The position numbers were made by a program, and so were the translations under genes. A model generated the notes under the pieces. The model was not told where the DNA came from. It worked only from the letters and a program-made list of their open reading frames with translations, and did no database searches. A stretch of DNA of 64,000 bases from an uncultured Lentisphaerota bacterium (GTDB lineage Bacteria; Verrucomicrobiota; Lentisphaeria; Oligosphaerales; CAITYL01): contig CAITYL010000021.1 in assembly GCA_903896595.1 (NCBI GenBank), positions 852 through 64,851 on the forward strand. The letters are read 5' to 3'. Shown piece after piece: positions 11,974 through 42,214 of this stretch. Numbering within the stretch: the stretch's first letter is position 1; every line of letters starts with the position of its first letter.

Positions 11974-12018
11974 ATGAAAAGCGGCAAAGGAATTGCCGCA
12001 CTCCAAGAACGGTGCCAC
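11974..12018. repeat. repeat family F (GCGGCAA-ttcct-TTGCCGC hairpin plus T-run), copy 1 (inverted)
   Basis: atgaaaagcggcaaaggaattgccgcactccaagaacggtgccac. Confidence 0.8.
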
Positions 12019-12032
12019 TTTGATCGGGACTT

Positions 12033-12057
12033 GGGAGCCGCCCGGCCTCGGGCGGAC
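12033..12057. repeat. repeat family D core, copy 4
   Basis: gggagccgcccggcctcgggcggac. Confidence 0.7.
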
Positions 12058-12178
12058 AGCGGCGGTGTCACACCCGTTCCGTCTGCGGTATGGCGTGCCG
12101 TGGCCTTTCCCCATTCTTATCCGCGCTAATCCGCGTGATCAGCGGTCAACGGCCGATAAAAAAGGCCGGCGAAAACAA

Positions 12179-12281
12179 AGGACCATTGGGACCATTAAGA
12201 CTCTTGAGACCCTTATGACGCCGGCGGAAACCACCGCCAGTCCCAAGGGTCCTAATGGTCCCAAGAGTCCCAATGGTCCTA
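12179..12281. repeat. 9-nt periodic word palindrome, GGACC/GGTCC type, copy 1
   Basis: ggaccattg ggaccatta agactcttg agaccctta - tgacgccggcggaaaccaccgccagt - cccaagggt cctaatggt cccaagagt cccaatggt cc. Reverse complement is about 90 percent identical by eye to 28526-28630. Confidence 0.85.
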
Positions 12282-12517
12282 TAAAACCACGTTCCCGCCG
12301 GCGGTCGATGCCAATTCACCGTTGGCGAGTTTGTGCTAAAGATTGGCGGGATCGTCCATGGCGGGCGCGCCGCGGCCGGCTATTTTACCTTCATCACCCG
12401 GCCTTCTGGTGCGTGGCGATGTCGCCGTGGTGTAATGCTGTAATTGGCAAAGTTGGCAACTGGGTGGTATGTTAAGGCTTGGTGTAATGCTGTAATTAAA
12501 AAAGGTGACTGCCGCTC

Positions 12518-13651
12518 ATGCCGACATTGGTCTACGGAAACCGGGTCCCGCTCTACCGCCAGGTCGCTCAGGCGCTCCGCCAGCGCGTGCGCACCGGCGT
12601 CTATGCGGCGGGCCGGCCCCTGCCCACCATGCGGGCGCTGGCCCTGGAGTACGGGGTCAGTGTGTATGCGATCCAGAAGGCCATCTACGAACTGGAGAAA
12701 GAGCGGGTGGTCGTCACCCACCATGGCAAGGGCATCATGGTAATGGAGGAAAAGCCGTGCGACCAGGCGGCCATCCTGTTCGGCATGATCGAGCCGTATG
12801 AACACTTCATGGGCTTTGAAGGCCAGATCATCCGGATGGCCGAAGAGGTGTTCAACCAGCGCAACGACTTCATGGTCACCCGGTCGTCCGCGGGACGCGC
12901 GGAACGGGAGCGGGCGATTGCCGAACATTATGTGAAAAACGGCGTCAAGGGCCTGATCGTTTGGCCGGTGGAGAACGATCCCAATGGCCCCTTTTTCACC
13001 GAGCTTGCCAAAACGGTGCCGGTGGTGGTCATCGACCGCGACGTGAAAAACTGCGCCGTGCCCAAGATTTTTTACGATTTGGTCCGGGCCGGGCGCAACT
13101 TTTGCCAATACCTGCTCGGGCCGATGAAGCGCCGTCGCTTGTTGGTGCTGATGGACACCCTGGACATCTCGCCGTACCACGACTTTACGGCGGGGTTGCA
13201 GCAGGCGGCGGCGCAGCTCGGCCGGAAGGCGGATGTGATCATCAAGCCGGTGCCCGCTTCCGAACTCAGCGGCCATTTCAGCGTGGGCGATTTCTCCCGG
13301 GTGCCCAAGCTGGCGGCGCAGATTGAAAAATGGCTGCGGGCCGAGGGCTGTGACGCGGTCTTTTGCTACCAGGACGAATTCATCGACTATGTCCTGACGG
13401 AAACCGGCCTCTATGACCGGTTCCCCGGCCTGCAGATGGCGACCATGGTGACCCGGGACATTTACAGCCGGTCGCAAAAATTCAACCAAAGCCATGTCCT
13501 GACCGGCGTGCTGGACCAGTCCAAGCTGATCCAGACCGCCGCCAACCTCTTGCAGGACGCCGTCTACGGGCGGATTCCGCCGAAGGACATGCCGCCCATT
13601 CAAGTGGAACTGGTCAAGGACGGCGCCAAGATCAAGGTTGTCCCGCCATAA
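12518..13651 (+). CDS. GntR-type HTH regulator fused to a periplasmic-binding-protein (LacI-like sugar-binding) domain
   Basis: 377 aa. N-terminus PLYRQVAQALRQRVRTGVYAAGRPLPTMRALALEYGVSVYAIQKAIYELEKERVV is a GntR winged helix. The rest (GLIVWPVENDP ... VVVIDRD ...) looks like a PBP type-1 sugar sensor. Confidence 0.8.
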   Translation: MPTLVYGNRVPLYRQVAQALRQRVRTGVYAAGRPLPTMRALALEYGVSVYAIQKAIYELEKERVVVTHHGKGIMVMEEKPCDQAAILFGMIEPYEHFMGFEGQIIRMAEEVFNQRNDFMVTRSSAGRAERERAIAEHYVKNGVKGLIVWPVENDPNGPFFTELAKTVPVVVIDRDVKNCAVPKIFYDLVRAGRNFCQYLLGPMKRRRLLVLMDTLDISPYHDFTAGLQQAAAQLGRKADVIIKPVPASELSGHFSVGDFSRVPKLAAQIEKWLRAEGCDAVFCYQDEFIDYVLTETGLYDRFPGLQMATMVTRDIYSRSQKFNQSHVLTGVLDQSKLIQTAANLLQDAVYGRIPPKDMPPIQVELVKDGAKIKVVPP

Positions 13652-13714
13652 ATCAAATAGGAGATCAGGCCGTTTCTGTTTTGAACGTATTTTCATCCGC
13701 ATTCCGGCGGAGCC

Positions 13715-13776
13715 GCTGTAGCCAAGGGCTTGTAGCCCGGCGGAATCCCGCCGCCGCGCTACCAGCGCTCAGCTAC
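13715..13776. repeat. repeat family G, copy 1
   Basis: gctgtagccaagggcttgtagcccggcggaatcccgccgccgcgctaccagcgctcagctac is similar, in the same orientation, to 35317-35377. Confidence 0.7.
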
Positions 13777-13919
13777 AAAAAGAGATTCCCATAAGGCGCA
13801 AACTTCAACGACGACGAGAAGGAGAACCGACCATGACGAGCCGTGAAGTCGTCCGTGTCCCGCAACGCCAAGAAGAGTTGACCCTGTCCCCCAACCGCCA
13901 ATCCCAAGGAGAACCGACC

Positions 13920-14720
13920 ATGAAGACAACGACAACCCAACAACCGAAGACCGTCCTGGGCGTGCTGCTGCTGGCCGCCCTGGCCATGACGGGCGCCAAT
14001 GCTGGCATCCTGCACAGCGATCCGGTGACCGGCCTGCTTCCCGGCGGTGATTTTTCCCTGCCCAACTTCCCGGCGCCCGGCTGTGACAGCTATGTTTTCC
14101 AGGACTTTCCAGGCCAAGGGCAATGGAGTCATAATGAAACCAGCCCAGCTTCTGACTTTACGCGGGTTGTAACCGAAAGCGGTGGCAATCGGCATGCGGA
14201 AATGGAGGTGCAATGGCATGACTCGGGGCGTCAAGCCAATGTGTGGTACACGGACGCGGGCAATACCGGGACCACGGCGGCCTGGACGATTTCCGCGGAC
14301 ATGATGTACACGGGCCAAGAACCGGTGGCTAAGTTCTTCATGCTTAAATCGGGTGGGGCAGCAAGCGCCAATGTGTTTAGTATGGATTTTACCACCACGG
14401 CGATTGCATGGACGGCTGGCAGCCAAAATGGCACCTTCAATTCCGTCACTGGGCTGGACAGCGTTTGGCGCACGGTTTCCTTCTTCTATAATCCGGTCAA
14501 TGGTCTGGCCTATGGCAGGCTCGGTGCGGAAACCGTGTTTTCCACCACCATCGCCACTGGGTTGACCGTACAAACTGTCGCTTTTACCACCATGGAGACA
14601 GCCACTACCCCCTATGCAAATAATATTTTGTCCATTGACAATGTCTCCGCCGTGCCGGAGCCGGCGGCCCTGGGGCTGCTGGCGCTGGGCGCGCTGGGCT
14701 TCCTCCGCCGCCGGCGGTAA
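13920..14720 (+). CDS. PEP-CTERM sorting-domain secreted protein (beta-sandwich-like)
   Basis: Signal peptide [29 protein letters not shown]-terminus [22 protein letters not shown] is a canonical PEP-CTERM anchor (PEP, TM helix, Arg cluster). Confidence 0.85.
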
Positions 14721-14750
14721 GTTGGCGGGAGCGGCTTTTTTTGGGGGGGG

Positions 14751-14796
14751 GTGTCCGACGGGTCTGACGCGTCTGACCTGTCCGACCCGTCTGACA
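14751..14796. repeat. 9-nt periodic word array, GTCYGAC type (single arm)
   Basis: gtgtccgac gggtctgac gcgtctgac ctgtccgac ccgtctgac. Lies between the PEP-CTERM stop (14720) and the pseudopilin start (14845). Confidence 0.85.
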
Positions 14797-14844
14797 CGAT
14801 TGCCCCCCGTGCAACCCGTTTGCGGAACACGAAACATCCCCGCC

Positions 14845-15558
14845 ATGAAACGCTTCACCTTCATTGAGCTGTTGGCATGCCCAGCCGTAGTCCCGAGCCA
14901 TGGCGAAGGGCGAAGGCAAGTTCGAGCAGCGTTTACGCTGATCGAACTGCTGGTGGTGATCGCCATCATTGCCATCCTGGCCGCCATGCTGCTGCCGTCG
15001 CTGAATTCGGCCCGCGGCGCCGCGCGGCGGACGGCCTGCTGCGGCAATCTGCGGCAGGTGGGGGTGGCCATGGCCCTTTATGTCCCGGATTACAACGGGG
15101 CCTACCCGCCATGGTATGTGAATTACAACAATCCGCCGGACTGGGGCAGCATCTTGGCGGGGAAGACCGGCGGCGCCGCCTATCTGCCGGTGCCGGAAAC
15201 GGTTGGAAAGGCCAATTCGGTATTGGATTGTCCGGCGAACCCGCTCGGGTGGCAGGGCACCACCACCTACGGCGCCAATATGAACCGGTTCAATTTCTAT
15301 TGGTCGGATGTCCTCTGTGTGCCCAATGAAAAATTGACGGACCGCACGCTCAGCGGGCCGTCCAATCTGATCATGGTTTATTGTTGTGGCGGCCCTTACA
15401 CCTTTGGCGGCGCGCCCAACAGCGCCTGGGGCGACTGGGATGGTGGGCCCCGCTACCGTTGCCTGCACAACGGAACCTATCCGGTGGTCTGGTTTGACGG
15501 CCATGTCAGTGTCGGCGACCAGCACCTGATGTCCATGGAAAAGGTGGACAACTGGTGA
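14845..15558 (+). CDS. prepilin-type N-terminal cleavage/methylation domain protein with C-terminal H-X9-DG motif; duplicated leader
   Basis: [11 protein letters not shown]...[26 protein letters not shown] gives two class-III signal motifs. C-terminus [13 protein letters not shown] is H-X9-DG. Confidence 0.85.
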
Positions 15559-15588
15559 CGTTGCCTGACCCGCATCGTTGAACGGATT

Positions 15589-15658
15589 CAGCAGCCCCCA
15601 CTGAAGTGGGAACTCCCAAGCCGGAACGTTTGAGTTTGGAGTTCCGCCTTCAGGCGGC
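15589..15658. repeat. hairpin-module element H (CCCAC-tgaa-GTGGG and CCGCC-ttca-GGCGG with GGAGTT/AACTCC), copy 1
   Basis: cagcagcccccactgaagtgggaactccc...ggagttccgccttcaggcggc. Ends 50 nt before the GH5 start codon. Confidence 0.8.
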
Positions 15659-15707
15659 GTCTTCGTCGTCCCGTCTTCCAAATCATCAATCCAGGAAAAA
15701 AACAGCC

Positions 15708-17966
15708 ATGCTGAAGTCTCTGTTGCTTTCTGTACTGTTCCTGTCTCTGGCGGCCGGCGCCGCGGAGACGCCCCGGCCGGAGCCCGTCCGCTATCGCGGC
15801 TTCACCGTCGCCACGCTGGACAAGGCGGTTCTGGAAGAGGCGGTGGACCGGTGGCACGCCAACCAGGTCCGCTACATGATGTGCCCGGTGTGGCGGGCGC
15901 CCAATTCCGCCGTCGGCCATTACCAGGCGGCCTGGCGCAAGATGATCGCGGAGTTGCCCGCCGGCCTGGACCATGCCAAAGCGCTGGGGCTGGCGGTGGT
16001 GCTTGATCTGCACCAGTTGCCTGACGACCATCCCCGGACCTATCCGGCCGATCCCAAGCGGGGATGGTGGTATGACGAAGAAAACTTAAAAATGCTGATC
16101 GCGTGCTGGCAGGAGCTGGCCACGATTTGCAAGGACCGGGACCAGGTGATCTGGTTTGATCTTTTGAACGAACCTCTGGAGTGGTCGGTGGTGCACAGCA
16201 CACCGAGCTATCCGCCGACCTGGCCGGCCTGGGCGCAAAAGACGATTGACGCCATCCGCCAGATCGACCGGCGGCATCCCATCGCCATCGAGCCCGGGCC
16301 GGGCATGCTCAATTGGGGCTTCACCGGTTTTCCGCCGTTGAAGGATCCGTACCAGCCGGTGATTTATTCGGTGCATTTGTACCAGCCAGTGACCTACACC
16401 CACCAGGGGGTTAATCACAACCAGATTTTGCCGTGGCCCGGCGATTTTCCCAGTGACGGCGGCGCGTGGGATGCCCGGCGGTTGGAGGGCGAAGTGGCCA
16501 ACGTCGTGGCGTTCCAAAAACAGTATGGTGTCCGCATCTGGGTCGGCGAGTTCAGCGTCGCCCGCTGGGCGCCCAATGGCGCGGCGTATCTGCGGGATTG
16601 CCTGAATATTTTTGAGAAGTACGGCTGGGACTGGAACTATCACGCCCTGCGGGAAGCAGCCGTGTGGTCGCTGGACCAATCCGATGAGGTTGATCTCTAC
16701 GATGCCAAAGGCAAGTATGTGCGTACCGGCCTGGCGGTCCCCAATGCCAATCTTTTTTATGCCCCGTACGGCACGCCCGAAATTGGCAAACCCGCCCCGT
16801 TGCAGGGACTGACCGACCGCGGCAAGGTGGTGAAGGAATATCTGGACCGGAACTTGGCCGTGCCGGCGGCGGACCGCTTGCCGTACTCCGTGAACCGGCT
16901 GTTGGTGGTGGGCGACAGCATCACCCGCCACCCTCCCGCCGAACACCTCAGCTGGAAGCACGACTGGGGGATGGCCGCCAGCAGCGCCGCCAACGACTTT
17001 GCCCACCGCCTGCAGACGCGCCTCGCCGCGGGGCAGGGCAGGTCCGTGGAGCTGGTGGTGGACGGGGTTGGCGGCGGCACGGTGGCCGGCAAGATCGCCG
17101 CCGCCAAGGATTTGGCCGCCATCCGCGCCGAGGTGGTGGTCATTCAACTGGGGGAAAATGACCGGGTGCCGGAGGAGGTTTTCCGGCAGCAGTACGCCGC
17201 GCTGGTGGAACTGCTGCGCCAGGCCAATCCCGGCGCGCACCTGGTCTGCACCGGCGTGTGGAGCCCGCCCAACGGCCAGTCCGGCCGGAATGACACCATC
17301 CGCGATGTCTGCCGCCAATATGGCGTGCCGTTTGCCGACCTCACCGCCGCCGGCGCCGACCGCAACAACATGGCCGGCGTTTCCGGCCAGTGGGCGCATC
17401 CCGGGGTTGGCTGGCATCCCGGCGACTCCGGCATGGCCGCGTACGCCGATGCCATCTTCGGCGCCCTGCGGGCCGGGGACCGGGCCATTCCCGCCGTGAG
17501 TGCCGCAGCCGCCGCCGGCACCGGTCCGGTCGCCGGAGTGCTGTTTCAGGAGGCGTTTACCGATCCGGCCGCCGCCGGGTTGTTCATTCCCGCGGGACTT
17601 GGGGTGCGTGAGGCCACCGCAACCGGGTTCGCCCTCCGCGTCAATGCCGTGAAAGACGCGACCCTGGTCCGCCGGGCGCTGCCGGTGGCGGCGCTGAAAG
17701 GGCACAAGGTTCTCTTCACCGCCCGGGTCAAAACCCAGGGCCTGGCGGCCGGCAACCGGGTGGTGGTGCGGCTGGAGTTGCTCAATGCCGAAGGCGTCCG
17801 GGAACAACTGACGGCGGCGGTACCGTCGGGCACGGGTGGCTGGACGGAGATCCGGCTGCCGGCCTTCATTCCCGGCAACACCGTGACGGCGGATCTGGTC
17901 CTGGGACTGGCGGCCGCGCCGGGCACCGCCTGGTTCAGCGATCTCCGCCTGGTGGCGGCGCCGTAG
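15708..17966 (+). CDS. secreted bifunctional GH5-type glycoside hydrolase / SGNH (GDSL) esterase with a C-terminal beta-sandwich
   Basis: Signal peptide MLKSLLLSVLFLSLAAGAAE. FDLLNEP (acid/base) and IWVGEFS (nucleophile) fit clan GH-A/GH5. Second domain has LLVVGDSITRH and VVIQLGENDR SGNH blocks. Confidence 0.8.
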   Translation: MLKSLLLSVLFLSLAAGAAETPRPEPVRYRGFTVATLDKAVLEEAVDRWHANQVRYMMCPVWRAPNSAVGHYQAAWRKMIAELPAGLDHAKALGLAVVLDLHQLPDDHPRTYPADPKRGWWYDEENLKMLIACWQELATICKDRDQVIWFDLLNEPLEWSVVHSTPSYPPTWPAWAQKTIDAIRQIDRRHPIAIEPGPGMLNWGFTGFPPLKDPYQPVIYSVHLYQPVTYTHQGVNHNQILPWPGDFPSDGGAWDARRLEGEVANVVAFQKQYGVRIWVGEFSVARWAPNGAAYLRDCLNIFEKYGWDWNYHALREAAVWSLDQSDEVDLYDAKGKYVRTGLAVPNANLFYAPYGTPEIGKPAPLQGLTDRGKVVKEYLDRNLAVPAADRLPYSVNRLLVVGDSITRHPPAEHLSWKHDWGMAASSAANDFAHRLQTRLAAGQGRSVELVVDGVGGGTVAGKIAAAKDLAAIRAEVVVIQLGENDRVPEEVFRQQYAALVELLRQANPGAHLVCTGVWSPPNGQSGRNDTIRDVCRQYGVPFADLTAAGADRNNMAGVSGQWAHPGVGWHPGDSGMAAYADAIFGALRAGDRAIPAVSAAAAAGTGPVAGVLFQEAFTDPAAAGLFIPAGLGVREATATGFALRVNAVKDATLVRRALPVAALKGHKVLFTARVKTQGLAAGNRVVVRLELLNAEGVREQLTAAVPSGTGGWTEIRLPAFIPGNTVTADLVLGLAAAPGTAWFSDLRLVAAP

Positions 17967-18078
17967 CCAAGTCTCCGCCGCTTGATATCCGGTGCCCGGC
18001 AGAATAGATTCACACATCTGTGCAGCCTTTTGGGGATTGGGAGTTTTTGATGTTTACATCGTAGAGACGGGGAATGGC

Positions 18079-19110
18079 ATGCCAAATTTCAGGCGGGTTC
18101 TTTATCTGGTTCTCGGTCTGGCCTGCGTTAGCGCCGGAGTGATCGGCATTTTTCTTCCGGTGTGGCCGACCACGCCGTTTTTGCTGGCCGCGGCGCTCCT
18201 TTTTGCCAAGAGTTCGCCACGTCTCTATTTCTGGATGACCCGCAATCAATATCTGGGCAGTTTTGTCCGCAATTATCGTGAGCAGTGCGGGGTTCCCAGA
18301 GTGATTGTGTACCGGGCGCTGGGATTTCTGTGGCTGACGCTCGGCGTTTCCATGTTTTTCACCGGACTTGCCTGGGTGAGAATTTTGTTGGCGGTTATCG
18401 GCCTTGGCGTCTCGATTCATCTGCTTTGCCTGAAAAAGGCCACCCGTTCCCCTGGCCGGTTCACCCTGATTGAGCTGCTGGTTTCACTCGGGATCATGGC
18501 CCTGCTGGCATCCCTTTTGCTGCCCGCGCTGAACCGGGCCAGGATCGCGGCGCAACGGAGCGTATGCAGTAACAACTTGCGGCAGATCGGGTACGCGATC
18601 CACCTGTATGCCGACGACCATCACGATTTTATCCCCGCGCTGGCCCCCGGTTTTTCTGGCAGCGTCATGATGCTGCGAATGCCCGGTCTCGGCCCGCTTG
18701 GTTTGGGGCGGCTGGTTGGGGAGTATGGAACCGTGCCGAAAAATTACGGCTGTCCCCTGAGCCCGAGCCGCACCCCCGGTTATCTGACCGGGAAATGGAG
18801 CGGCGCCGGTCCGGTGCAGGCGGCTTACTTGTTCCGCTCCACCGATGCCGGATTGGCGGAACAGCTTTCCGCCCTGGGAAATCAGGCAAAAGCGCTGGTG
18901 ATGGATTTTTGCTGTGTGGTGGAAGGCGGTTCCCCGATTGTGGCGCACGATTACGCGGATGTCAATATCCTCTATACGGACGGCGCGATTAAAAACCGGA
19001 AAAACGCGCCGGCCCCCGGGACACTTTACACGGTTGCCGCGCCGGCGGCGATGTCCGGCAGTACCATCCCGGAATGCGCAGCGGTTTGGCGCCATGCCGA
19101 CCTGCCATGA
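18079..19110 (+). CDS. fusion protein: DUF454/YbaN-like inner-membrane domain plus prepilin-type methylation motif plus H-X10-DG domain
   Basis: N-terminal ~120 aa [42 protein letters not shown] matches the YbaN/DUF454 pattern. An internal [26 protein letters not shown] starts at nt 18460. C-terminus [13 protein letters not shown]. No stop or ATG lies between the two parts. Confidence 0.7.
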
Positions 19111-19143: not shown

Positions 19144-21363
<2,220 letters not shown>

Positions 21364-31443: not shown

Positions 31444-31905
31444 TTACCCGGCCAAAATGAAGGTCAGGTCATTGACGTTGGTGTTGGTGGGGCCGGTGCG
31501 CAGCAGGCCGCCGGCGCGGTCAAAAAAGGAGTAGGCGTCATTGGCCGCGAGAAAGGCCGCGGCGTCCAGCCCCTGTTCGCGCGCCAGTCGCACCGTGTCG
31601 CCAGTGACCACGGCGCCGGCGGCATCGGTGGGGCCGTCGGTGCCGTCGGTGGCCAGGGCGATCACGGTCACCCCGTCCCAGCCGTCCAGCGCCAGGGCCG
31701 CCGCCAGTGCCAGTTCCTGGTTGCGGCCGCCGCGGCCGGCACCGCGCACGGTGACCGTGGTCTCGCCGCCCAAAATGACACAGGCCGGGCGCGCCAGCGG
31801 CATGCTATCCGCAATCAGCGATTTGGCGATGCCGGCCACCACCCGCGCCACTTCCCGCGCCTCGCCTTCGACATAGTGCTTGGGGACGGGTGAATGGTGA
31901 TTCAT
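31444..31905 (-). CDS. MOFRL-domain protein: only the C-terminal third of a glycerate 2-kinase / hydroxypyruvate reductase-type gene
   Basis: 153 aa. PACVILGGETTVTVRGAGRGGRNQELALAAAL...ATDGTDGPTDAAGA...TGPTNTNVNDL is the MOFRL domain. The usual ~270-aa N-terminal domain is absent. The start overlaps the fucosidase stop (TGATG). Confidence 0.65.
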   Translation of the reverse strand: MNHHSPVPKHYVEGEAREVARVVAGIAKSLIADSMPLARPACVILGGETTVTVRGAGRGGRNQELALAAALALDGWDGVTVIALATDGTDGPTDAAGAVVTGDTVRLAREQGLDAAAFLAANDAYSFFDRAGGLLRTGPTNTNVNDLTFILAG

Positions 31906-33230
31906 CAGGCAAAGCCGGTTAGTTCAAAAACGACCGGACCGCTGGCAAGACCCCGTGGGGCAGCCGACCGAAGGTGAATCTCGTCCCCGGTGGGTGCCCA
32001 CTCCACCGGCGCACCATCCAGGCGGCGGATCACCGCGTGCGGGCCCGGCCGGGGTTGGACCAACCGCCATTCCCCAACGCCACAGTCAAAACAAATGGCA
32101 AACACGCGTTCGTCGGCAACCGTATAAAACAGGTCATCGCCTTCCGACGGCACCCGCCAGGGACGGGTGCCGTAGATGGCCGCGCCATTTTCCCCGAGCC
32201 AGCGCCCAAGAGTCAGCAGGCGCTCCTGCATGACCACCGGAATGGAACCGTCGGCGGCTGGGCCGATATTGAGCAATAGATTGCCGCCCCGACTGACGGT
32301 CGTCACCAACAGCCGCAGCAACTGGTCAGCCGCCAGGTAGTCCGCGGCGTCCTCGTTGCGGTTGAAGCCGAAGGAATAGCCGATGCTCCGGCACTCCTCC
32401 CATTTGCGGTGAGCGGCCAGCTCGGTACCGTGCTCGTCCACCTTGCCGTACTCCGTGGTGAAATATCCGCCATGCCGGCTGCGGGTATCCTTTCCCCAGC
32501 GGTCATTCACCACAATTTCATCTTTCACCGCCGACTCATTGAAGAGCCAGGCCAGGAATTCAGGACTGTGATAGACCGCGCTGTCATGGTCCCATTCCCC
32601 GTCAGTGAACAGCAGCGAGGGGTGATATTGCCCGACCAGTTCCCGCAATTGCGGGATCATGTGTTCCAATGCGTATTGTTCCGGGGCCGCCTGATAGAGC
32701 GGCCGGTACCACTCCAAAAGGGAATAATAGGCGCCCATGCGCAACCCTTGGGCTCGGACAGCGGCGGCCAGTTCGCCGAACAAATCGCGGTGCGGCCCAA
32801 TGTCCTGGCTGTTCCAGTTCCAACTGTGGGTGCTGGGCCACAGGCAAAACCCGTCATGATGCTTGGCCGTGAGGACGACATAACGGGCGCCACTGGCGGC
32901 AAACAGTTCCGCCCAACGCGCCGGATCAAACAATTCAGCGCGGAAGTGCGGGGCGAAGTCCGCATAACGGCACTGGGCGCCGTAAGTTTGGGTGTGAAAC
33001 GCCGCCGTTTGGCCCGCCTTTTCGTTCATATTCCACCCATACCATTCGGCATAGGCGGCGCCGGCGTAGGCGGCATCCCGGCGGCGGGGTGCCCAGGCCG
33101 GGACGGAGTAAAGTCCCCAATGGATGAAAATCCCGAATTTTGCCTCGTCAAACCACCCCGGTACCGGGCGGCGGTCAAGCGATTCCCACAACGGTTGCCA
33201 AGCCATAAACGTCATCTGACCGTTCTCCAT
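31905..33230 (-). CDS. alpha-L-fucosidase (GH29)
   Basis: 441 aa. PVPGWFDEAKFGIFIHWGLYSVPAW ... YVVLTAKHHDGFCLWPS ... is the GH29 signature region. Confidence 0.9.
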   Translation of the reverse strand: MENGQMTFMAWQPLWESLDRRPVPGWFDEAKFGIFIHWGLYSVPAWAPRRRDAAYAGAAYAEWYGWNMNEKAGQTAAFHTQTYGAQCRYADFAPHFRAELFDPARWAELFAASGARYVVLTAKHHDGFCLWPSTHSWNWNSQDIGPHRDLFGELAAAVRAQGLRMGAYYSLLEWYRPLYQAAPEQYALEHMIPQLRELVGQYHPSLLFTDGEWDHDSAVYHSPEFLAWLFNESAVKDEIVVNDRWGKDTRSRHGGYFTTEYGKVDEHGTELAAHRKWEECRSIGYSFGFNRNEDAADYLAADQLLRLLVTTVSRGGNLLLNIGPAADGSIPVVMQERLLTLGRWLGENGAAIYGTRPWRVPSEGDDLFYTVADERVFAICFDCGVGEWRLVQPRPGPHAVIRRLDGAPVEWAPTGDEIHLRSAAPRGLASGPVVFELTGFA

Positions 33231-33247
33231 CTGCCATGGCCTTCACA

Positions 33248-33267
33248 TTTCACCTGTCCCTTGAAGG
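33248..33267. repeat. leader motif TTCACCTGTCCCTTGAAGG (minus strand CCTTCAAGGGACAGGTGAA), copy upstream of the fucosidase gene
   Basis: 18 nt upstream of the ATG at 33230. The same word occurs at 35265-35315. Confidence 0.7.
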
Positions 33268-33296
33268 CCTTCCGGCGTCACACGCCGTGGTTTCAC

Positions 33297-35225
33297 TTAC
33301 AAGATATTTTCCCGGTAGCGACGGTTGGTCAGGTACAGGTAAACCGCGGCTGACCACTGATAGTCGGGCGAACCGCCGCCCGGCCGTTGCGGATCGCTGA
33401 AATAACATTCCAGAATTTTGTCGCCCCGGTCGATCATCGCCAGCAGCCGGTCGGCGGCATCGTCGGCCTGCCGCCGGTAGCCGTTGGCCCACAGCATTTC
33501 CAAAATCCAGGTGGTCGTATGCGGCCAAATCCGGCCGCGCCAGTAGCCGCAGGGGTCATACTGCGGATCGTCATAGGCCACATACGGAAACGGCTGCGGA
33601 CCAAAGAACCGTTGCGGGTTGAGGGCATTGTCCTTAAGCAAGGTTTGCTTGACCTCGTCGGGCAGCGGCATGCCGGCCCAAACCGGCAGCAAGGAGGTCA
33701 GCACACGGACGCGATTGAAGGCTTGGCACTGGTGATCATAATCGTGGAAATAACCCGTTTCGCGGTCCCAGCAAACGTCCAGCAGGCGTTGCGGAATCGC
33801 GTCCACGGCGGCCATGACGGCGGCGGCATTCACGTCATCGCCAACCAGACGGTAGAGCTTGGACAGACAGCGGGCCTCCATGTAGATGTAGCTGTTATAG
33901 GCCACTGACGCCACCGGCGGCAGGAAGCAGCACCCGGAAAATCCGGTGCAGGAAAGATGGGCCATGTAACGATCATATTGCGGCGAGTTGTCGGCGCTTT
34001 GTCCGGTAAAACGGACTTCGATCAGACCGTCGCGGTCATGGTCCTGGGTCTGGAGATACCAGTCAAACACGCCCCGTACCCGTGGCAGGATTTCGCGGAC
34101 AAAACCGAGATTTTCCCAGCGGCGGTACAGGTGCAGGATGCCCCATCCCTCCAACGGTGCCTGCGGATAAAACGTCGAGCCCACCTCGTACTCATAACTG
34201 TGCGTGGGGACGCAACCGTCCGGACGCTGAAACGCATACAGCACCCGCAACGCATCCTCCGCCTGGCGCGGCGAAAATTCGCCGAGCCCGATGGCGCCAA
34301 AAATCGAATCCCAGAAAAATGCCGTGGACGCCCAGTCGGTGGCCATGCAAAAACTGGCGATGGATTGGCCCCAACGTCCGTGGACGCCCAAGTATCCGGT
34401 CCGGTCCAAGATCGCCGCCGCCCGCACTTCGCGGCTGTAGGAGGGACGTTCACGGCCGGGCAACGGCGCGATCCGGGCGCAAAAACGATTTTGGGCTTCC
34501 CCCCAGACGGCATTGAACTCTGATGCCGCCGGCAGTTCCCCCCATGCCATCGCCTGCTTCGGCGGCCGGTTTTCCATGTCCAGCAGAAACAATACGCTCT
34601 GCGGCTGTTTTAAGCTGCAGCCGCCGGCCTGAAGCCGGTAACCCGCCGACAACGGCTGGCAGGCCAGCGGACGGCCGGGCGCGGAAAGCCGCCAGCAGGC
34701 GCACCAGTCTTCGCCCGATGAGAAAAACCGGTCATTCTTGGCGTCGCGGGCACCAACGGCAAAGGCCACCGCGTCCTGCTGATTTTCGATTTTCCTTACG
34801 GCATAATCGGCAAACCAGCGGCCGTCGAACGCCAACTCGAGATCGCCATCGTACCCGTCGCCGGCCAACGCCAATTCCAGCAGATAGAGATTGTGCCGCG
34901 GACAGGTGATCCGGAGTTTTCCGGTAATCGCGCAGTTGCCCCAGCGGATTTCGCCGGACTGGGTTACCCCCCACGGATAGTGCTCAACACCGGATGCGGT
35001 TAACGGCTGCGCGGACGGCCAGTCAGTGGCTTTGATTTTGATCTGCAGCGATGGCGCCGTGGCCTGGCCGCGGATATTGTTCAAACCGCGGGTGCACAAC
35101 GCATCAATCCCAACGGTATTGCGAAGAAAAGTCACGACCAGATGGGAATAGCAATCAACGTATCCGGCATCCATCGCTTCCGGCGCAAACCGGTTTTTAA
35201 ACAACGTGTCTTCTTTTTGCTTCAT
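33297..35225 (-). CDS. (alpha/alpha)6-barrel glycoside hydrolase, GH63 / MGH1-like
   Basis: About 640 aa. FFWDSIFGAIGL ... DRDGLIE ... GQSADNSPQYD ... YWRGRIWPHTTTWILEMLW are typical of GH63/GH37-type six-hairpin enzymes. The ORF-track start at 35246 is TTG. The first ATG is at 35225. Confidence 0.65.
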   Translation of the reverse strand: MKQKEDTLFKNRFAPEAMDAGYVDCYSHLVVTFLRNTVGIDALCTRGLNNIRGQATAPSLQIKIKATDWPSAQPLTASGVEHYPWGVTQSGEIRWGNCAITGKLRITCPRHNLYLLELALAGDGYDGDLELAFDGRWFADYAVRKIENQQDAVAFAVGARDAKNDRFFSSGEDWCACWRLSAPGRPLACQPLSAGYRLQAGGCSLKQPQSVLFLLDMENRPPKQAMAWGELPAASEFNAVWGEAQNRFCARIAPLPGRERPSYSREVRAAAILDRTGYLGVHGRWGQSIASFCMATDWASTAFFWDSIFGAIGLGEFSPRQAEDALRVLYAFQRPDGCVPTHSYEYEVGSTFYPQAPLEGWGILHLYRRWENLGFVREILPRVRGVFDWYLQTQDHDRDGLIEVRFTGQSADNSPQYDRYMAHLSCTGFSGCCFLPPVASVAYNSYIYMEARCLSKLYRLVGDDVNAAAVMAAVDAIPQRLLDVCWDRETGYFHDYDHQCQAFNRVRVLTSLLPVWAGMPLPDEVKQTLLKDNALNPQRFFGPQPFPYVAYDDPQYDPCGYWRGRIWPHTTTWILEMLWANGYRRQADDAADRLLAMIDRGDKILECYFSDPQRPGGGSPDYQWSAAVYLYLTNRRYRENIL

Positions 35226-35264
35226 GCGATGATTACCCTTGTTCAAAGAGATAAGGCCCCATAA

Positions 35265-35412: not shown

Positions 35413-38400
35413 CTAGGGCGCCGGCGGTGCCGGCGCCAAAAGCCACGTCAAACTCTGCCCCATAAATTTGCCATTGCCAATCCCGGGCCGGCATTCCAGG
35501 TAGCCGAGACGGCCGGCGCCGTCGTTGTCATTGAGAATGAAATTCATCGGGAGCCGCGCGCCCGCTTCGCCGCGCAACGGCGCCAGCGCCGTCCAGGGAA
35601 TGGCCACTTCATAAACCAGGCGGCCGGCCAATTCTTTTATGGCGATATGGGCGCCGGGTACCGGGCCGACCCCGCCGCCGGGAGCAACCAGCTGGTAAAC
35701 CTCGGGACCGCGGGCGGTCTTGGCAATCAGAATCTCGTAGAGCGGCGCCTGCGTTCCGCCAAAGGTGAACTGGAATCCGTCGCCCATCCAGGTGGCGCCG
35801 CCGGTGGCCGGCTGGAAATGCACGTTGTCGCTGACGTCGGCGGCGATATACAACACCTCCGCATCCCATTGGAACCACAGGCGGCCGGACAGATCCGCCG
35901 GCCCATGCCACCAGGAGACATCAGGCCGAACCTGTCCTGGCTCGCCCAGTTGGAAGGCCGGGCTCCGGGGCCAGTCGTCCAAGGAGCCATCCACGGTCAC
36001 CGGCCGGGTGCGCCGGGGAATGCAAGCAGATGACACCGCGCGGTCCAGGGTGAACGGCAGGCCGTTGACGCTGCCGCTGAAGCGCGCAGACAGGCTTTCC
36101 GGTACCGTCCCCAGCTTCACGGTGTAAGCCAAATCCAGCGAACGCCCCGGAGCCAAATTCACCGCCACCGCCCCGGCCGGCGTCACCTGGGCATCAGGCA
36201 CGCTCATCGCCACCGAGCCCCGGAGCGGCGCCACGCCGCCATTGGTGAGCCGCGCGTTCAGCGTAAAAACACCGTTGCGCAAGGGTGCCATCAGCGGCGC
36301 CACCGCTAACGTAAACGGCAAGGCGACTTCACACTCCACGGGAGCGTCGTCGCAACCGCTGGCTTGCAACCGTAACGTCACCGGGCCGGGAAGCGCGCCA
36401 GCCGCCAAAGACACGGTGAACGCGCCATCCATCTCGTCACGGGACGCACAAGCAAGCGGCCCGGGCGCCGCCGTCAACGTCCAGCCGGCGGGCATGGTCA
36501 GTCGCGGCGTGACCGTGACCGGCCGGTCGCCGCCATTGACCACGGAAAACGGGATCTGGAACGGTTGTCCCGGAAATGCCGGCCCCAGGCGCGGCACCGC
36601 CAGGAACAGTGGCCGCGGCGACCGGGCGGGCGGAAGCACATCCACCGGCCGGGGTATCGGCGCTTCCGCCCGGCGGGCCTGAAACAGCACCACCACCGGG
36701 GCACCGCCCACGGTAAGTCGCAACTGGCCGCCTGCAACGGACCGAAACGTCCGCGTGCCGTCGATCGCCACCAATTCCACACCGGAACCGGCCGCCAAAT
36801 CAGGCAGGGGCAGTTCAATTTCCCGTGCCCGGTCGTCGGCGCTCCACAGCGCCAGAGCGGCCCGGCCGTCGCGCAACCGGTAGCGCCAGGCCGCGCAGCC
36901 CGGCGGGACCGCGGCGGCGCGCCCCAGCCCGCGCGCCCCGTCCAAGGTCTTGGCCACGGTCAAGTACGCATAAAACGCCGGTTTGGGCCGGCCGTCGCCC
37001 CGGAACAGGCCGAAATAGCCCTCCTGGTCGGTCGGCGCCGCCGGATAATCACCGGAACAGTACCAAAACATCTTGTACTTCTCCACCGCCGCGCAGGTCA
37101 GGTAAAGCTGGGCCAGTAATTCGGCCTGCCGCGATTCGCTGACGCCGCCCACCGGCTGCGACGGCCAGCCGAACTCGGTCATCCATACCGGCCGCCCGGC
37201 GGCGCCGTTGTCCGCCAGCACCTTTTCCAGCGAGGCGAGCTGCGACAGCATCAGTTCCGGGTTGTAGGCGTGACACCACTGGTAGGGATGCACGGTGACG
37301 AAATCGCAATAGCCGCCCACCCCGTTGCGGAGTCCGCCGGTGATGAACGGCAGGTTGATGCCCGCCGTGGAAAAGGCGCCGACAAAACAGGCCGGATCCG
37401 CCTGTTTGGCCATCACGTACGCCGCCTTGACCAGCGCCGCATAGTGCGGGGGCGGCACCGGCGCCAAGTCCGGTTCGTTGCTGACTTCCCAGCACCGGAT
37501 GCGGCCGCGATAGCGCGACACCACCCGGTAAACCCAGTTTCCCCAGTCCATCAATCGCGGTATTTTTTCCCCGGCCGCCAACGACGCATAACCGCTGTGA
37601 GCCGCGCTGCCCGCCGAGGCGTGGTCCTGCCGGACGCCGCCCGGCTGATAGACATATTGGAAACGGCGCGGATTGAAGATGCCCAGGACCATGATCCGGT
37701 CCCGCGCCGCATTGGCCATAATGGCATCCAAGCCTTTGACATTTTCTTCAAAGGTCAGGTCGGGCCGGTAATCCAGATCCACGCGGATCCACTTGATGCC
37801 GGCCGGCGTCAGCATGGCGGTGTCCAAGCTCTTGTGGCACAGCCCGAAAACGCTTTCCGGTTCCAGCGCGCCGGCCGTCCGGTCCGGCACCCCGGCCAGT
37901 TCCGCCCGTGCCGCCGTCACCATGGCGCCGTCCGGCGCCGTCAACCGGGCGCGGGCGACAAAGCTCCGGCCCGGCGGGAAGCGGACCGGGAAGGTCGCGT
38001 GCATCTCCCCGGTCCCGGACTGCGGCATCGCCACCGCCCGCGTTGCCGTTGCCACGGCCTTGCCCGCGGCGTCCGCAACTTCCAAATGGAGCTGATAGCC
38101 TGGGGTGGGCGGATTGCGGTACCCAGTCAGCGCGAACGTCACGCGTTCGCTGCCGGTGGTGGCCACCAGGCCGCCGCCGGTATAACGAAGTTCCGCGTCA
38201 CCCCAGGGGGAAAGCGTCGCCGCCACTTCCAGGTCCGCCAGTTCCAACGTCCCCGAACGGGCCGCCCCGGCACTCCAGCCCAGGGTCACATCCTGCAAGT
38301 AGGCCGGCGGATGCAGTACGCCATCATTATCCCCACCCCAGTGGCTTTCGGTGGCGGCGATGGGGATCTCCACGGTTTTCCACCCGGTCCAGTCCACCTT

Positions 38401-38796
38401 GCCCAGCGTCCACTGAAACGTCTGGCCGCTAGCGTCGGTGTAGCGGAAGGACAGCGTGATCCCCGGCTTTTCCGCGTAAATCCGCATCCGGTAGGCGGAC
38501 GGCGTTCCCCAACATTTGAAGCGGTGGCCGATGGCGGCAAAGCTGTCCGTAGTGGCCGTAGGCTCAAATTCCCAGCCGAGTTTCAGGCTGGCGCGGCCCG
38601 CTACTGACGGCTGATCCTGGGAAACGGTCGTTTCGGTGATGCGGGCCGGGCCGTTGGCGTAGCTCCAACCGGAAAACGGCGCCACGGTAAAATCCGGCAA
38701 CGGTTGCCAGCCGGGCGCCACCGGCGCGGCAATCGCGGCCGCCGCCAGCACCAGCCCAGCCAAACTTGCAAAAAAAATGCGCATGAGGAATTTCAT
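35413..38796 (-). CDS. large secreted multidomain glycoside hydrolase (clan GH-A catalytic core, CBM9/DOMON-like C-terminus)
   Basis: 1127 aa. Signal peptide MKFLMRIFFASLAGLVLAAAAIAAP. IRCWEVSNEPD (acid/base) and PVWMTEFGWPSQP (nucleophile). The C-terminal DGSLDDWPRSPAF...LWFQWDAEVLYIAADVSDN is CBM9-like. Confidence 0.75.
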   Translation of the reverse strand: MKFLMRIFFASLAGLVLAAAAIAAPVAPGWQPLPDFTVAPFSGWSYANGPARITETTVSQDQPSVAGRASLKLGWEFEPTATTDSFAAIGHRFKCWGTPSAYRMRIYAEKPGITLSFRYTDASGQTFQWTLGKVDWTGWKTVEIPIAATESHWGGDNDGVLHPPAYLQDVTLGWSAGAARSGTLELADLEVAATLSPWGDAELRYTGGGLVATTGSERVTFALTGYRNPPTPGYQLHLEVADAAGKAVATATRAVAMPQSGTGEMHATFPVRFPPGRSFVARARLTAPDGAMVTAARAELAGVPDRTAGALEPESVFGLCHKSLDTAMLTPAGIKWIRVDLDYRPDLTFEENVKGLDAIMANAARDRIMVLGIFNPRRFQYVYQPGGVRQDHASAGSAAHSGYASLAAGEKIPRLMDWGNWVYRVVSRYRGRIRCWEVSNEPDLAPVPPPHYAALVKAAYVMAKQADPACFVGAFSTAGINLPFITGGLRNGVGGYCDFVTVHPYQWCHAYNPELMLSQLASLEKVLADNGAAGRPVWMTEFGWPSQPVGGVSESRQAELLAQLYLTCAAVEKYKMFWYCSGDYPAAPTDQEGYFGLFRGDGRPKPAFYAYLTVAKTLDGARGLGRAAAVPPGCAAWRYRLRDGRAALALWSADDRAREIELPLPDLAAGSGVELVAIDGTRTFRSVAGGQLRLTVGGAPVVVLFQARRAEAPIPRPVDVLPPARSPRPLFLAVPRLGPAFPGQPFQIPFSVVNGGDRPVTVTPRLTMPAGWTLTAAPGPLACASRDEMDGAFTVSLAAGALPGPVTLRLQASGCDDAPVECEVALPFTLAVAPLMAPLRNGVFTLNARLTNGGVAPLRGSVAMSVPDAQVTPAGAVAVNLAPGRSLDLAYTVKLGTVPESLSARFSGSVNGLPFTLDRAVSSACIPRRTRPVTVDGSLDDWPRSPAFQLGEPGQVRPDVSWWHGPADLSGRLWFQWDAEVLYIAADVSDNVHFQPATGGATWMGDGFQFTFGGTQAPLYEILIAKTARGPEVYQLVAPGGGVGPVPGAHIAIKELAGRLVYEVAIPWTALAPLRGEAGARLPMNFILNDNDGAGRLGYLECRPGIGNGKFMGQSLTWLLAPAPPAP

Positions 38797-38842: not shown

Positions 38843-38903
38843 GGCTTGGAGTTCCCACTTCAGTGGGGGCTGTTCGCAAGGTACCGCCTGAAGGCGGAAC
38901 TCC
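38843..38903. repeat. hairpin-module element H, copy 2 (same modules, permuted order)
   Basis: ggcttggagttcccacttcagtgggggctgttcgcaaggtaccgcctgaaggcggaactcc. Ends 47 nt before the start codon of the 1127-aa hydrolase (minus strand). Confidence 0.8.
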
Positions 38904-39250: not shown

Positions 39251-39919
39251 TCAACGAAAATATTGATTGCCGTTGACCTGGTAAAACAGCTGGCGGTTGG
39301 CGCTGGGGAAGTTGGTCACATGACCGTCGCCCATCACGGCATTGGCACTGGTGCGGTGGTTCGCCGAGTTTTGGTTCTGCAAATCCATGAACAACACCCC
39401 CTCTGTCAAGCGGTCGGCGGTATTGCGCTTGAGGGAGAATCCGCCGTTGCGGAAGTAATTATCGGACGGCGGATAGGCGAAATAACCATAGGAAAGATAA
39501 GAAATCTTGCCAATGGCGTCGTCGCTCGGATGCCACCAGCCCCACCAGTTGTTTTCCGGGCAAAAGTCTTTGTTGGCCGGGCAATAGAACATCGTATGGC
39601 TGATATAAGTTCCTGGTCCGAAACGATCATCCCAGGTTTTGCCAGGATTGACCAGGGGCCCGGTCAGGGTCGCGGAACAGACGGTGTTTGGATCCAGCAG
39701 GCCGTCCCAGGTGCCGATCGGGTATTGCAGCGGGAACCAGCTGTTGTAGTCGCCGGCATAGGAATGCAGCGCCAGGCCGAGCTGGCGCAGGTTGGAGCCG
39801 CAGACCGCCAGTCTGGCCCGGTCCTTGGCCCCGCTGAGCGCCGGCAACAGCATGCTCGCCAAAATGGAAATGATGGCGATCACCACCAACAGCTCAATAA
39901 GAGTAAAAGCACGTTTCAT
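39251..39919 (-). CDS. prepilin-type N-terminal cleavage/methylation domain protein with H-X9-DG motif
   Basis: [32 protein letters not shown] plus C-terminal [13 protein letters not shown]. Confidence 0.9.
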
Positions 39920-39970
39920 GAGTAAAAAAACCGTGCGGTTGGGGATGTGCTACAACGGAGATAGGGCAGA

Positions 39971-40053
39971 CTCTGTGGACTTGGTGGACCCTGTGGACCC
40001 TGTGGACGTTTGGGCGCCGTCCACCAGGTCCACCCAGTCCACCGGGTCCACGC
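39971..40053. repeat. 9-nt periodic word palindrome, GTGGAC/GTCCAC type
   Basis: ctct gtggacttg gtggaccct gtggaccct gtggac gtttgggcgcc gtccaccag gtccaccca gtccaccgg gtccacgcc. Lies between the PEP-CTERM stop (40073) and the pseudopilin start (39919). Confidence 0.9.
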
Positions 40054-42053: not shown

Positions 42054-42214
42054 CAGCACTATAACATGAAGCGGACGTTTGGCAAGCGAGAGGCATTCCA
42101 CGGGGGTATACAAGGGTGTTGGTGGAAGAACGATGCTGGCGCCGCTGGAAAGGGCGCAGACCGCATTATTGTACGTCTCTAGCCGGCACACATCTGTCCA
42201 CGGAAGTCTGTACA

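Follow-up and report, generated by a model that had tools for sequence, protein, structure and literature searches.

Recurrent cassettes pairing a PEP-CTERM protein with an H-X9-DG pseudopilin beside sugar-type regulators and glycoside hydrolases in an uncultured Lentisphaerota bacterium

The 64-kb stretch of DNA analyzed here in its entirety (hereafter the window), from contig CAITYL010000021.1 of an uncultured Lentisphaerota bacterium, carries two gene cassettes, one on each strand, in which a sugar-type regulator, a small PEP-CTERM protein, an H-X9-DG pseudopilin and a secreted, established or putative, glycoside hydrolase (GH) follow one another. The window has a GC content of ~62% and is dense in carbohydrate-active genes, ~11 of its 47 genes encoding carbohydrate-active enzymes (CAZymes). 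Both cassettes had been pointed out in a sequence-only reading of the window, and the Pfam and NCBIfam profile scans on which gene identities are based recovered all of the genes in the order and at the places that reading had given (Table 1). Each of them qualifies as a CAZyme gene cluster: cassette 1 through a regulator with a GntR domain and a periplasmic-binding-protein-type sensor (GntR-PBP) and the adjacent, same-strand GH5/SGNH gene, and cassette 2 through a LacI regulator together with a putative GH, a GH63-like and a GH29 gene.

The GH5 domain of cassette 1 scored 74.1 bits against PF00150 (cut-off 23.5), and its nearest solved relative is 8ag9 (2e-49), an enzyme of Thermogutta terrifontis (PMC11071339). 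The 1127-residue protein of cassette 2 yielded no catalytic Pfam match; clan GH-A-type NEP and TEFG motifs (WEVSNEPD, WMTEFGW) were read from its translation, a weak match to PDB entry 5jvk (9e-9) spans residues 424-618, and we regard it as a putative clan GH-A-like TIM-barrel glycoside hydrolase. In the same cassette, the stop codon of the LacI gene overlaps the start of the PEP-CTERM gene by 4 nt, an overlap found identically in the orthologous contigs L005 and L006. Three further same-strand genes, set off by gaps of 166 nt and 66 nt and then by a 1-nt overlap, form a probable downstream extension of cassette 2 (31444..35246).

Table 1 Coordinates of the two cassettes, their spacer elements and adjoining genes in the window
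Feature	Position	Strand	Remarks
Promoter-like site 5' of cassette 1 regulator	12444..12473	+	TTGGCA-18-TATGTT with TG; consensus scan only
Cassette 1 regulator, GntR helix-turn-helix and LacI-type periplasmic-binding-protein sugar sensor	12518..13651	+	PF00392 1.5e-16; Peripla_BP_4/1 weak
PEP-CTERM protein 1, 266 aa	13920..14720	+	Signal peptide, predicted beta-sandwich mature domain, VPEP anchor and RRRR
9-nt periodic array, GTCYGAC+2 x5	14753..14795	+	PEP-CTERM/pilin spacer of cassette 1; hairpin-forming
Pseudopilin 1	14845..15558	+	Class III (prepilin) signal, DUF1559 N-terminal part, H-X9-DG C-terminus
Inverted TTCA/TGAA-loop hairpin module pair	15597..15657	.	Pilin/GH spacer of cassette 1
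Secreted GH5 and SGNH/GDSL esterase, 752 aa	15708..17966	+	Signal peptide; PF00150 1.7e-20, PF13472 1.9e-17
DUF454 fused to prepilin/DUF1559 domain	17992..19110	+	Likely true start ATG 18070; motif H-X10-DG
Promoter-like site 5' of cassette 2 regulator	42058..42085	-	TTGCCA-16-TATAGT with TG; consensus scan only
Cassette 2 regulator, LacI family	40894..42009	-	PF00356 6.7e-18, PF13377 1.5e-31
PEP-CTERM protein 2, 274 aa	40073..40897	-	Mature domain unrelated to protein 1; PF07589 26.7 bits
Inverted pair of 9-nt arrays, GTGGACNNN x4 facing GTCCACNNN x4	39969..40051	.	Cassette 2
Pseudopilin 2	39251..39919	-	Class III signal, DUF1559 N-terminal part, H-X9-DG
TTCA/TGAA-loop hairpin module pair	38848..38903	.	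454-nt pilin/GH spacer of cassette 2
Secreted 1127-aa multidomain putative glycoside hydrolase	35413..38796	-	NPCBM_assoc PF10633, CBM9-like PF06452
GH63-like MGH1 hydrolase	33297..35246	-	Downstream of cassette 2
GH29 alpha-L-fucosidase	31905..33230	-	Downstream of cassette 2
MOFRL domain protein	31444..31905	-	Downstream of cassette 2

Both PEP-CTERM proteins combine a Sec signal peptide, read from the translations (MKTNTIRNTTPGRKISVGLAWAGLALLATTAAASA in protein 2), with a C-terminal tail made up of the PEP motif, a hydrophobic helix and a basic cluster at the extreme C-terminus (VPEPAALSLLGLGLLALGGRRRR in cassette 2). Protein 1 scored 27.1 bits against PF07589 (cut-off 20.7), and proteins 1 and 2 scored 21.6 and 21.2 bits, respectively, against TIGR02595 (cut-off 16). 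Signal peptides were likewise read from the translations of both cassette hydrolases. Class III signals were detected in both pseudopilins, with 30.5 and 30.2 bits for pseudopilins 1 and 2 against PF07963 (cut-off 21.2), and 29.2 and 31.6 bits against TIGR02532 (cut-off 16.3). The DUF1559 profile PF07596 (gathering score 23.3) was matched by pseudopilin 1, pseudopilin 2 and a third, fused pilin-like protein discussed below with 29.2, 38.1 and 27.3 bits, respectively, these matches covering only positions 2-42 of the 268 in the profile. The H-X9-DG motif was located in both pseudopilins by regular expression; the corresponding model, TIGR04294, gave no match in the NCBIfam scan at E <= 0.01. 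With 32.6 and 36.3 bits, confined to the N-terminal 60 residues, against a cut-off of 88.85 for the GspG equivalog TIGR01710, and with 22-24 bits over the N-terminal helix alone against a cut-off of 70 for TIGR02596, the pseudopilins fall outside both of these families. Residues 2-61 of pseudopilin 2 matched solved pilins and GspG in the PDB, again over the N-terminal helix only. A scan of a genome collection returned no close pseudopilin orthologue, the best match being 53% identical over 108 residues.

Pseudopilin 1 also displays, at its N-terminus (14845-14931), an extra 26 residues with a duplicated, degenerate prepilin motif (FTxIELL) preceding FTLIELLVV. Such an extension occurs as well in L004 (1030-1116), L007 (2559-2615) and L008 (1957-2040), a Lentisphaeria metagenome-assembled genome (MAG) in which another pilin paralogue carries it; of the 111 other pseudopilins sampled, only one has it. 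It may be a leader of unusual length or have been inserted in frame.

An AlphaFold2 model of PEP-CTERM protein 1, of moderate confidence (pLDDT 66.7, pTM 0.69), is all-beta, and Foldseek placed it among concanavalin-A (ConA)-like lectin/glucanase jelly rolls. The matches comprised the carbohydrate-recognition domains of Emp46p and Emp47p, with target template-modeling (TM) scores of 0.52-0.55, legume and archaeal L-type lectins, carbohydrate-binding module (CBM) family 4, GH16, and the lectin-like domains of clostridial neurotoxins and sialidases (CBMs). The modeled fold is thus compatible with carbohydrate binding, without amounting to proof of it. The sequence-only reading had cast the exosortase-anchored proteins as glycan binders, an idea at odds with any fold unrelated to carbohydrate binding; since protein 1 models as a ConA-like jelly roll, the expectation of a lectin or CBM fold holds for the model of protein 1; the model of protein 2 was unusable, and we make no statement on the fold of that protein. 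Searches of PDB sequences with the profiles of both proteins returned no match. Both proteins are rare, with five homologues of protein 1, and two plus one weak homologue of protein 2, among 5.8 billion clusters. An exhaustive HMMER search of 1.84 billion representatives returned five matches to the mature domain of protein 2, and these relatives are themselves PEP-CTERM proteins (two of five) or tandem repeats of the domain. Sub-threshold hints of L-type lectin and PAW domains in them are weak and were not used as evidence.

The view that the two cassettes did not arise by a simple recent duplication was upheld, in that only the N-terminal helix of the pilins and the PEP-CTERM anchor are common to both. 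The pseudopilins share their first 66 residues alone and have wholly different C-terminal domains; alignments of the PEP-CTERM proteins by BLASTP and hhalign are limited to the last ~60-75 columns; and the enzymes do not align at all. Remote homology of the two PEP-CTERM mature domains was considered and found no support, both methods reaching no further than the last strands and the anchor. Across all six frames, PEP-CTERM tails occur only twice and prepilin motifs three times in the 64 kb, and both PEP-CTERM genes directly precede a pilin gene (P ~6e-4 under random gene order and orientation). The occurrence of the full four-gene order twice in the window has a naive P of ~2e-8. Given that DUF1559 outnumbers every other paralogue family in several genomes of the Planctomycetota-Verrucomicrobiota-Chlamydiota (PVC) group, and that the window itself is CAZyme-rich, abundant DUF1559, PEP-CTERM and CAZyme genes might have produced this order by coincidence; the permutation P value, for the pairing alone, argues against it, as do the samples described below.

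Two samples of loci were used to gauge how often the pair recurs. The first, obtained by a scan of genomes seeded with the pilin alignment, consisted of 80 PVC loci (1.06 Mb) with 111 prepilin motifs and contained one convincing PEP-CTERM gene, located 188 nt 5' of a pilin gene in the closest relative found, the Lentisphaeria MAG L054. The second consisted of 80 metagenome loci from a scan seeded with the PEP-CTERM tails, 60 of whose PEP-CTERM genes could be evaluated (at least 250 nt downstream). In nine of these 60, a same-strand prepilin gene lies 24-262 nt after the PEP-CTERM gene, whereas the density of pilin genes in these loci predicts 0.7 (Poisson P = 7e-8). Restricting the analysis to the 17 pilin-bearing loci raised the expectation to 1.07, and none of 2,000,000 simulations gave nine; merging of obvious orthologues (L109/L115, L124/L135) left seven pairs. 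Adjacency thus exceeds expectation, and an excess of nine pairs over about one speaks against coincidence. Most of the paired metagenome pilins end in an H-X9-DG-type C-terminus (...DGH[VA]), and their partners are Pfam PEP-CTERM proteins. Altogether, at least 10 sequence-unrelated instances were found (cassettes 1 and 2, L054, L090, L102, L109/L115, L116, L119, L156 and L162). On the genome and metagenome counts, the pair is rare among pseudopilins and yet reflects a strongly non-random choice of partner by PEP-CTERM genes of several lineages.

The genes around these pairs resemble those in the window. Seven of ~11 independent cassettes have a LacI, GntR-PBP or AraC neighbor: a LacI gene lies downstream of the pair in L054 and upstream of two PEP-CTERM genes followed by a pilin gene in L162, L122 reads LacI, pilin, glucoamylase-like GH, PEP-CTERM, L097 reads GntR-PBP, pilin, PEP-CTERM, PEP-CTERM, and L150 has an AraC neighbor. 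GH116 adjoins the pair in L109, and L115 has a GH130/43-like neighbor and a divergent GH51 gene. A related arrangement was observed in Lentisphaerae ADurb.Bin242 (L171, 11335-19189), where GntR, a DUF1559 pilin, a GH123-like protein of 1127 residues, a secreted Laminin_G_3 protein and DUF5696 are encoded. Judging from its gene content, this is a cassette variant whose predicted ConA-like (LamG-type) protein has no PEP-CTERM tail and so would not be exosortase-anchored.

The association with regulators was quantified in the 80 genome loci by comparing 115 immediate neighbors of pseudopilin genes with 148 genes at least four positions away. Peripla_BP_3 was found in 10 of the 115 immediate neighbors, GntR in six and AraC in four, each being present in at most one of the 148 distal genes (Fisher P = 0.0014 for Peripla_BP_3; P = 0.0003 with AraC added). 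Each GH family was rare in the same counts. Sugar-type regulators are thus enriched beside pseudopilins and not at distal positions, and because the enrichment is restricted to immediate neighbors, single pseudopilin paralogues tend to have a sugar-type regulator of their own. That pseudopilin genes adjoin sugar-sensing regulators far more than distal genes do would also be in keeping with an uptake system comparable to the archaeal bindosome, in which the pseudopilin is a tethered or filament-assembled solute-binding protein (SBP) that passes hydrolase-released oligosaccharides to a transporter encoded elsewhere, the PEP-CTERM protein being an accessory binder. The C-terminal pilin domains are wholly different in each cassette, as those of ligand-specific binders would be, and an archaeal precedent exists in the sugar-binding proteins of Sulfolobus, which have class III signal peptides (PMC3047682). 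However, the window pseudopilins reach only the N-terminal stretch of the DUF1559 profile mentioned above, their globular part of ~150 residues is far below the size of classical two-lobe binding proteins, and neither cassette nor the orthologous contigs contain an ATP-binding cassette (ABC) or other transporter, so that we think this explanation unlikely.

Gene order was retained in orthologues down to 43% identity, and the architecture is therefore genuine and recurrent. Contig P0005, at this level of PEP-CTERM identity, reads GntR-PBP, GH20, PEP-CTERM, DUF1559, GH5+SGNH, GH20, GH20, GH42, AraC-PBP; contig P0006 reads PEP-CTERM, DUF1559, GH5 and F5/8-type-C protein; and contig P0004 reads GntR-PBP, PEP-CTERM and the start of a pilin gene. 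The GntR-PBP architecture of the cassette 1 regulator accordingly also adjoins orthologous cassettes. Next to relatives of PEP-CTERM protein 2, a LacI gene overlaps the PEP-CTERM gene by 4 nt and a pilin gene follows. With synteny kept in orthologues, and with regulators enriched beside pseudopilins but not further away in the same loci, a chance neighborhood of abundant gene families can be considered most improbable.

Closely related strains differ sharply in the mature domain of the PEP-CTERM protein. Relative to the window, contig L007 has a regulator identical at 97% of nucleotides and 100% of amino acids, and a regulator/PEP-CTERM spacer and a PEP-CTERM/pilin spacer with 98% and 95% nucleotide identity, respectively; its PEP-CTERM protein (1584-2435), in contrast, shares 49% of residues with protein 1, the divergence extending from just after the signal peptide up to the VPEP anchor. 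In cassette 2, the mature domains of L006 (1251-2087) and L005 are both 68% identical to that of the window, whereas their LacI regulators are 99% and 83% identical, respectively, and the pilin of L005 is 90% identical. The pseudopilin of L004 is 80% identical to pseudopilin 1. With 49-68% identity between conserved flanks, the hypervariable part of either cassette is thus the mature domain, a pattern that would fit a protein exposed at the surface and subject to diversifying selection or allelic exchange, and that resembles the hypervariability of the surface glycan-binding proteins (SGBPs) of Bacteroidota polysaccharide utilization loci (PULs).

Strain-level hypervariability is equally typical of exposed adhesins and phage targets, and the PEP-CTERM protein and the pilin might instead build a structure for particle attachment or for floc or biofilm formation that is switched on upon sensing of a polysaccharide and has no direct part in binding that glycan or in export of the enzyme. 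Flocculation, biofilms and motility are known to involve PEP-CTERM proteins (PMC9850573, PMC12188702), the floc_PepA model of NCBIfam weakly matches protein 2 over its full length (28 bits against a cut-off of 80), and some pairs (L116, L124) have no adjoining CAZyme gene. We nevertheless doubt that adhesion is the primary role: the pair stays with the same GH5 enzyme across orthologues of 43% identity, the regulators that accompany it are of the LacI and GntR-PBP types and not of the PrsK/PrsR type of exopolysaccharide (EPS)-linked PEP-CTERM systems, and the modeled fold of protein 1 is of the lectin type.

Two elements assigned to the cassettes in the sequence-only reading were found not to belong to them. 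The first is the fused pilin-like gene downstream of the GH5/SGNH gene. Full-length homologues of this DUF454-prepilin fusion numbered 22 (43-98% identity), named in their sources as Lentisphaerae or Lentisphaeria MAG proteins, which also assigns the organism of the window to the Lentisphaeria. In three other genomes (L168, L169 and L171) the gene lies directly 3' of a catalase gene, while that of the window ends 51 nt 5' of katG (19162-21363). For these reasons, the fusion gene is tied to catalase and not to the GH5 cassette, and its membership in cassette 1 was ruled out. In its own right, the in-frame joining of DUF454 (a YbaN-like membrane protein) with a prepilin/DUF1559 domain (window 18070-19110; L168, L169 and L171 8456-11032) makes a conserved Lentisphaeria protein always encoded beside catalase or catalase-peroxidase.

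The second is the set of repeats in the spacers. The cassette 1 array yielded four pattern matches against 0.04 expected, with an RNA fold z-score of -3.0; the cassette 2 arrays, far above chance, form a long periodic hairpin (z = -3.4); and the hairpin modules comprise two related stem-loops per site with compensatory changes in the stems. Tandem Repeats Finder located further arrays in the window at 12240-12279, 28525-28627 and 61452-61657, another array lies at 10044-10116, and a hairpin scan found other TTCA/TGAA-loop hairpins at 7490-7503 and 63893-63906. The cassette 1 array is kept only in the closest relatives, L004 and L007; it is absent from L002, which has different elements instead, the orthologous cassettes of L005 and L006 have no array, and L004 lacks a hairpin module at the pilin/GH junction. 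With copies at other intergenic sites and absence from orthologous junctions, arrays and hairpins were ruled out as integral cassette parts; they are dispersed repeats of the lineage, resemble repetitive extragenic palindromic (REP) elements and do not define the cassette. They may influence mRNA stability inside operons. Rfam held no match for them. As a family, the arrays of 9-10 nt share a GTCC/GGAC core and are often paired in inverted orientation, such pairs folding into long hairpins interrupted by internal loops at regular intervals; the 21-kb loci of L169 and L171, relatives with 65-68% identity, showed no array of this kind. Further GC-stem hairpins with TTCA/TGAA loops, of varying stem sequence and at assorted intergenic sites, were seen in L002 (1200-1290) and L006 (2110-2184). 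A third dispersed intergenic repeat, GTAGCCAAGGGCTTGYAGCCC / GTRGCMAAGGGCTTGYAGCCC, lies at 575-595, 13718-13738 and 39160-39180, and thus in both cassettes at different junctions; GTRGCMAAGGGCTTGYAGCCC was also found in contigs L001, L002, L003 and L007. Between the cassette genes no intrinsic terminator appeared in our promoter and terminator scans, which provide consensus-level hints and on which we base no claim of an operon.

Taking these observations together, the reading that we favor, and to which we give an even chance of being correct, is that the cassettes are substrate-inducible CAZyme operons, the core of which is a surface module composed of an exosortase-anchored lectin-fold protein and a dedicated H-X9-DG pseudopilin. 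A LacI-type or GntR/PBP-type repressor would detect a sugar breakdown product, leading to derepression of the operon. A small, Sec-exported, ConA-like beta-sandwich protein would then be made and carried to the cell surface upon processing of its PEP-CTERM tail by exosortase, and the H-X9-DG pseudopilin would be cut by a prepilin peptidase and join an apparatus akin to type II secretion systems or type IV filaments, the genes of which would lie elsewhere. The same operon would yield one or more glycoside hydrolases with signal peptides. At the surface, the glycan would be held by the lectin-like protein, and the paralogue-specific pseudopilin would fit the shared filament machine to the cargo of its cassette (enzyme and/or lectin) or to the glycan. 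We infer induction, surface display, glycan binding and any function of the pseudopilin, be it as secretion adaptor, binding protein or fiber, from the arrangement and predicted features of these genes.

Several observations weigh against this interpretation. No exosortase, prepilin peptidase, secretion ATPase, platform protein or transporter is encoded among the genes of the 64-kb window. Apart from the C-terminal strands and the anchor, no similarity of PEP-CTERM protein 2 to protein 1 could be detected, and the model of protein 2, built from an alignment of three sequences, reached a pLDDT of 32. For protein 1, the ConA-like jelly roll predicted by the model also serves non-lectin proteins, and the TM scores are modest. 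The residue at position -1 of the pilins is alanine (RAA|FTLIELLVV, KRA|FTLIELLVV), the canonical residue being glycine. With a PEP-CTERM neighbor beside only ~1% of the pseudopilins sampled from genomes, the pairing is not general to DUF1559. The pairs of L116 and L124 have no adjoining CAZyme gene. Finally, the large structured spacers (124-454 nt) could split transcripts.

A bolder form of the proposal, which we put forward tentatively and consider rather improbable, holds that the PEP-CTERM protein and the H-X9-DG pseudopilin are a dedicated, co-evolving pair and the PVC counterpart of SusD/SGBP, the pseudopilin serving as a paralogue-specific adaptor through which a shared type II secretion-like or type IV filament machine carries the neighboring exosortase substrate and the enzymes over the outer membrane or displays the former on a short fiber. 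If this were true, two sorting systems never linked before would become connected, and it would be clear why DUF1559 genes, with a sugar-sensing regulator for each, have multiplied to dozens or even hundreds per genome.

Elsewhere in the window, two tandem paralogues on the minus strand (8412-9929 and 10312-12114), divergently oriented from the cassette 1 regulator, have weak GHL10/GH18-type TIM-barrel matches and a C-terminal motif in common, HIVTYPDTLPDG. Defense-like or mobile-looking genes occupy 44137-47721 and 21562-22773, and include ATPase_2/DUF234, a pair of RloB and AAA_21 (OLD/Abi-type) genes and a DUF4143 ATPase; the GC content falls to 0.53 at 46-48 kb.

PVC bacteria play a major part in the breakdown of complex and sulfated glycans and, to our knowledge, bind polymers and export enzymes without SusC/D. 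In many genomes of Planctomycetota, Verrucomicrobiota and Lentisphaerota, no paralogue family is larger than DUF1559/H-X9-DG, and PEP-CTERM proteins are, as far as we know, equally obscure outside flocculation. Pseudopilins with regulators of their own, their non-random pairing with PEP-CTERM proteins of predicted lectin fold, and a lectin-like domain swapped between strains lead to testable hypotheses on substrate-specific surface modules. On a practical level, the combination of regulator, PEP-CTERM protein, H-X9-DG pilin and CAZyme may serve as a signature for glycan-utilization loci in PVC genomes. Copy numbers of DUF1559 reach 68 in Planctopirus (PMC10632474), 74 in R. baltica (PMC2754498) and 67 in Verruconatronum (PMC13274419); it is still named a family of unknown function (PMC10632474), and was termed a solute-binding family in an older paper (PMC2754498).

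Among known systems, the PULs of Bacteroidota, of which the cassettes may be an analogue according to the sequence-only reading, are alike in being substrate-specific clusters that bring together secreted or surface CAZymes, a regulator responding to sugars, and a small surface protein that is poorly conserved and has a carbohydrate-binding-type fold. That view is plausible, and the analogy is incomplete because the cassettes have no transporter. Unlike PULs, they are devoid of a TonB-dependent transporter, SusD or any other transporter, use a PEP-CTERM/exosortase anchor instead of a lipid tail, include a type IV pilin-like protein, and are governed by LacI or GntR-PBP regulators in place of hybrid two-component or extracytoplasmic function (ECF)/anti-sigma systems. 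No family match to a SusC-like TonB-dependent receptor or SusD was found in the window genes scanned or in the orthologous contigs, and in the absence of SusC/D and of a transporter the cassettes fall outside the Bacteroidota PUL class.

The archaeal bindosome (the Bas system of Sulfolobus; PMC3047682) shares with the cassettes pilin-type signals on proteins for sugar acquisition, and many substrate-specific paralogues served by one assembly machine. Bindosome proteins, however, have the full size of ABC binding proteins, and their genes accompany those of the transporters, whereas the pilins studied here measure 222-237 residues, match no SBP family beyond the N-terminal part of DUF1559, and have no ABC genes in their cassettes; the organism is, moreover, diderm. 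The PEP-CTERM/exosortase (EpsH) system and PepA use the same sorting signal, consisting of a signal peptide, PEP, a transmembrane helix and an arginine cluster, and protein 2 weakly matches the PepA model. In contrast to the classical system, which is found in EPS biosynthesis loci under PrsK/PrsR/PrsT regulation, the signal here occurs in catabolic CAZyme clusters and is paired with a pseudopilin. Verru_Chthon cassettes (TIGR02596-TIGR02600) and GspG-K operons have prepilin N-terminal methylation signals as well and are clustered in PVC genomes, but each contains several pseudopilins as opposed to the single pilin of each cassette.

Our literature search returned no publication joining PEP-CTERM with DUF1559 or describing a PEP-CTERM/pseudopilin pair. 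This pair, in a polysaccharide-utilization cluster, thus appears to be previously undescribed, the type of cluster itself being known. The only experimental precedent that we found in the literature is the alginate-induced operon of Verruconatronum alginivorum (Opitutales; pgaptmp_000046-60), in which a PulG-like pseudopilin, one of 67 paralogues, was co-upregulated with lyases in proteomics, and for which the authors suggest type II secretion of the enzymes (PMC13274419). It differs from the cassettes in that no PEP-CTERM partner was reported, a Na+/solute symporter is present and the enzymes are lyases instead of GH5. Like the cassettes, this operon nonetheless places a pseudopilin among secreted polysaccharide-degrading enzymes together with a LacI-family regulator.

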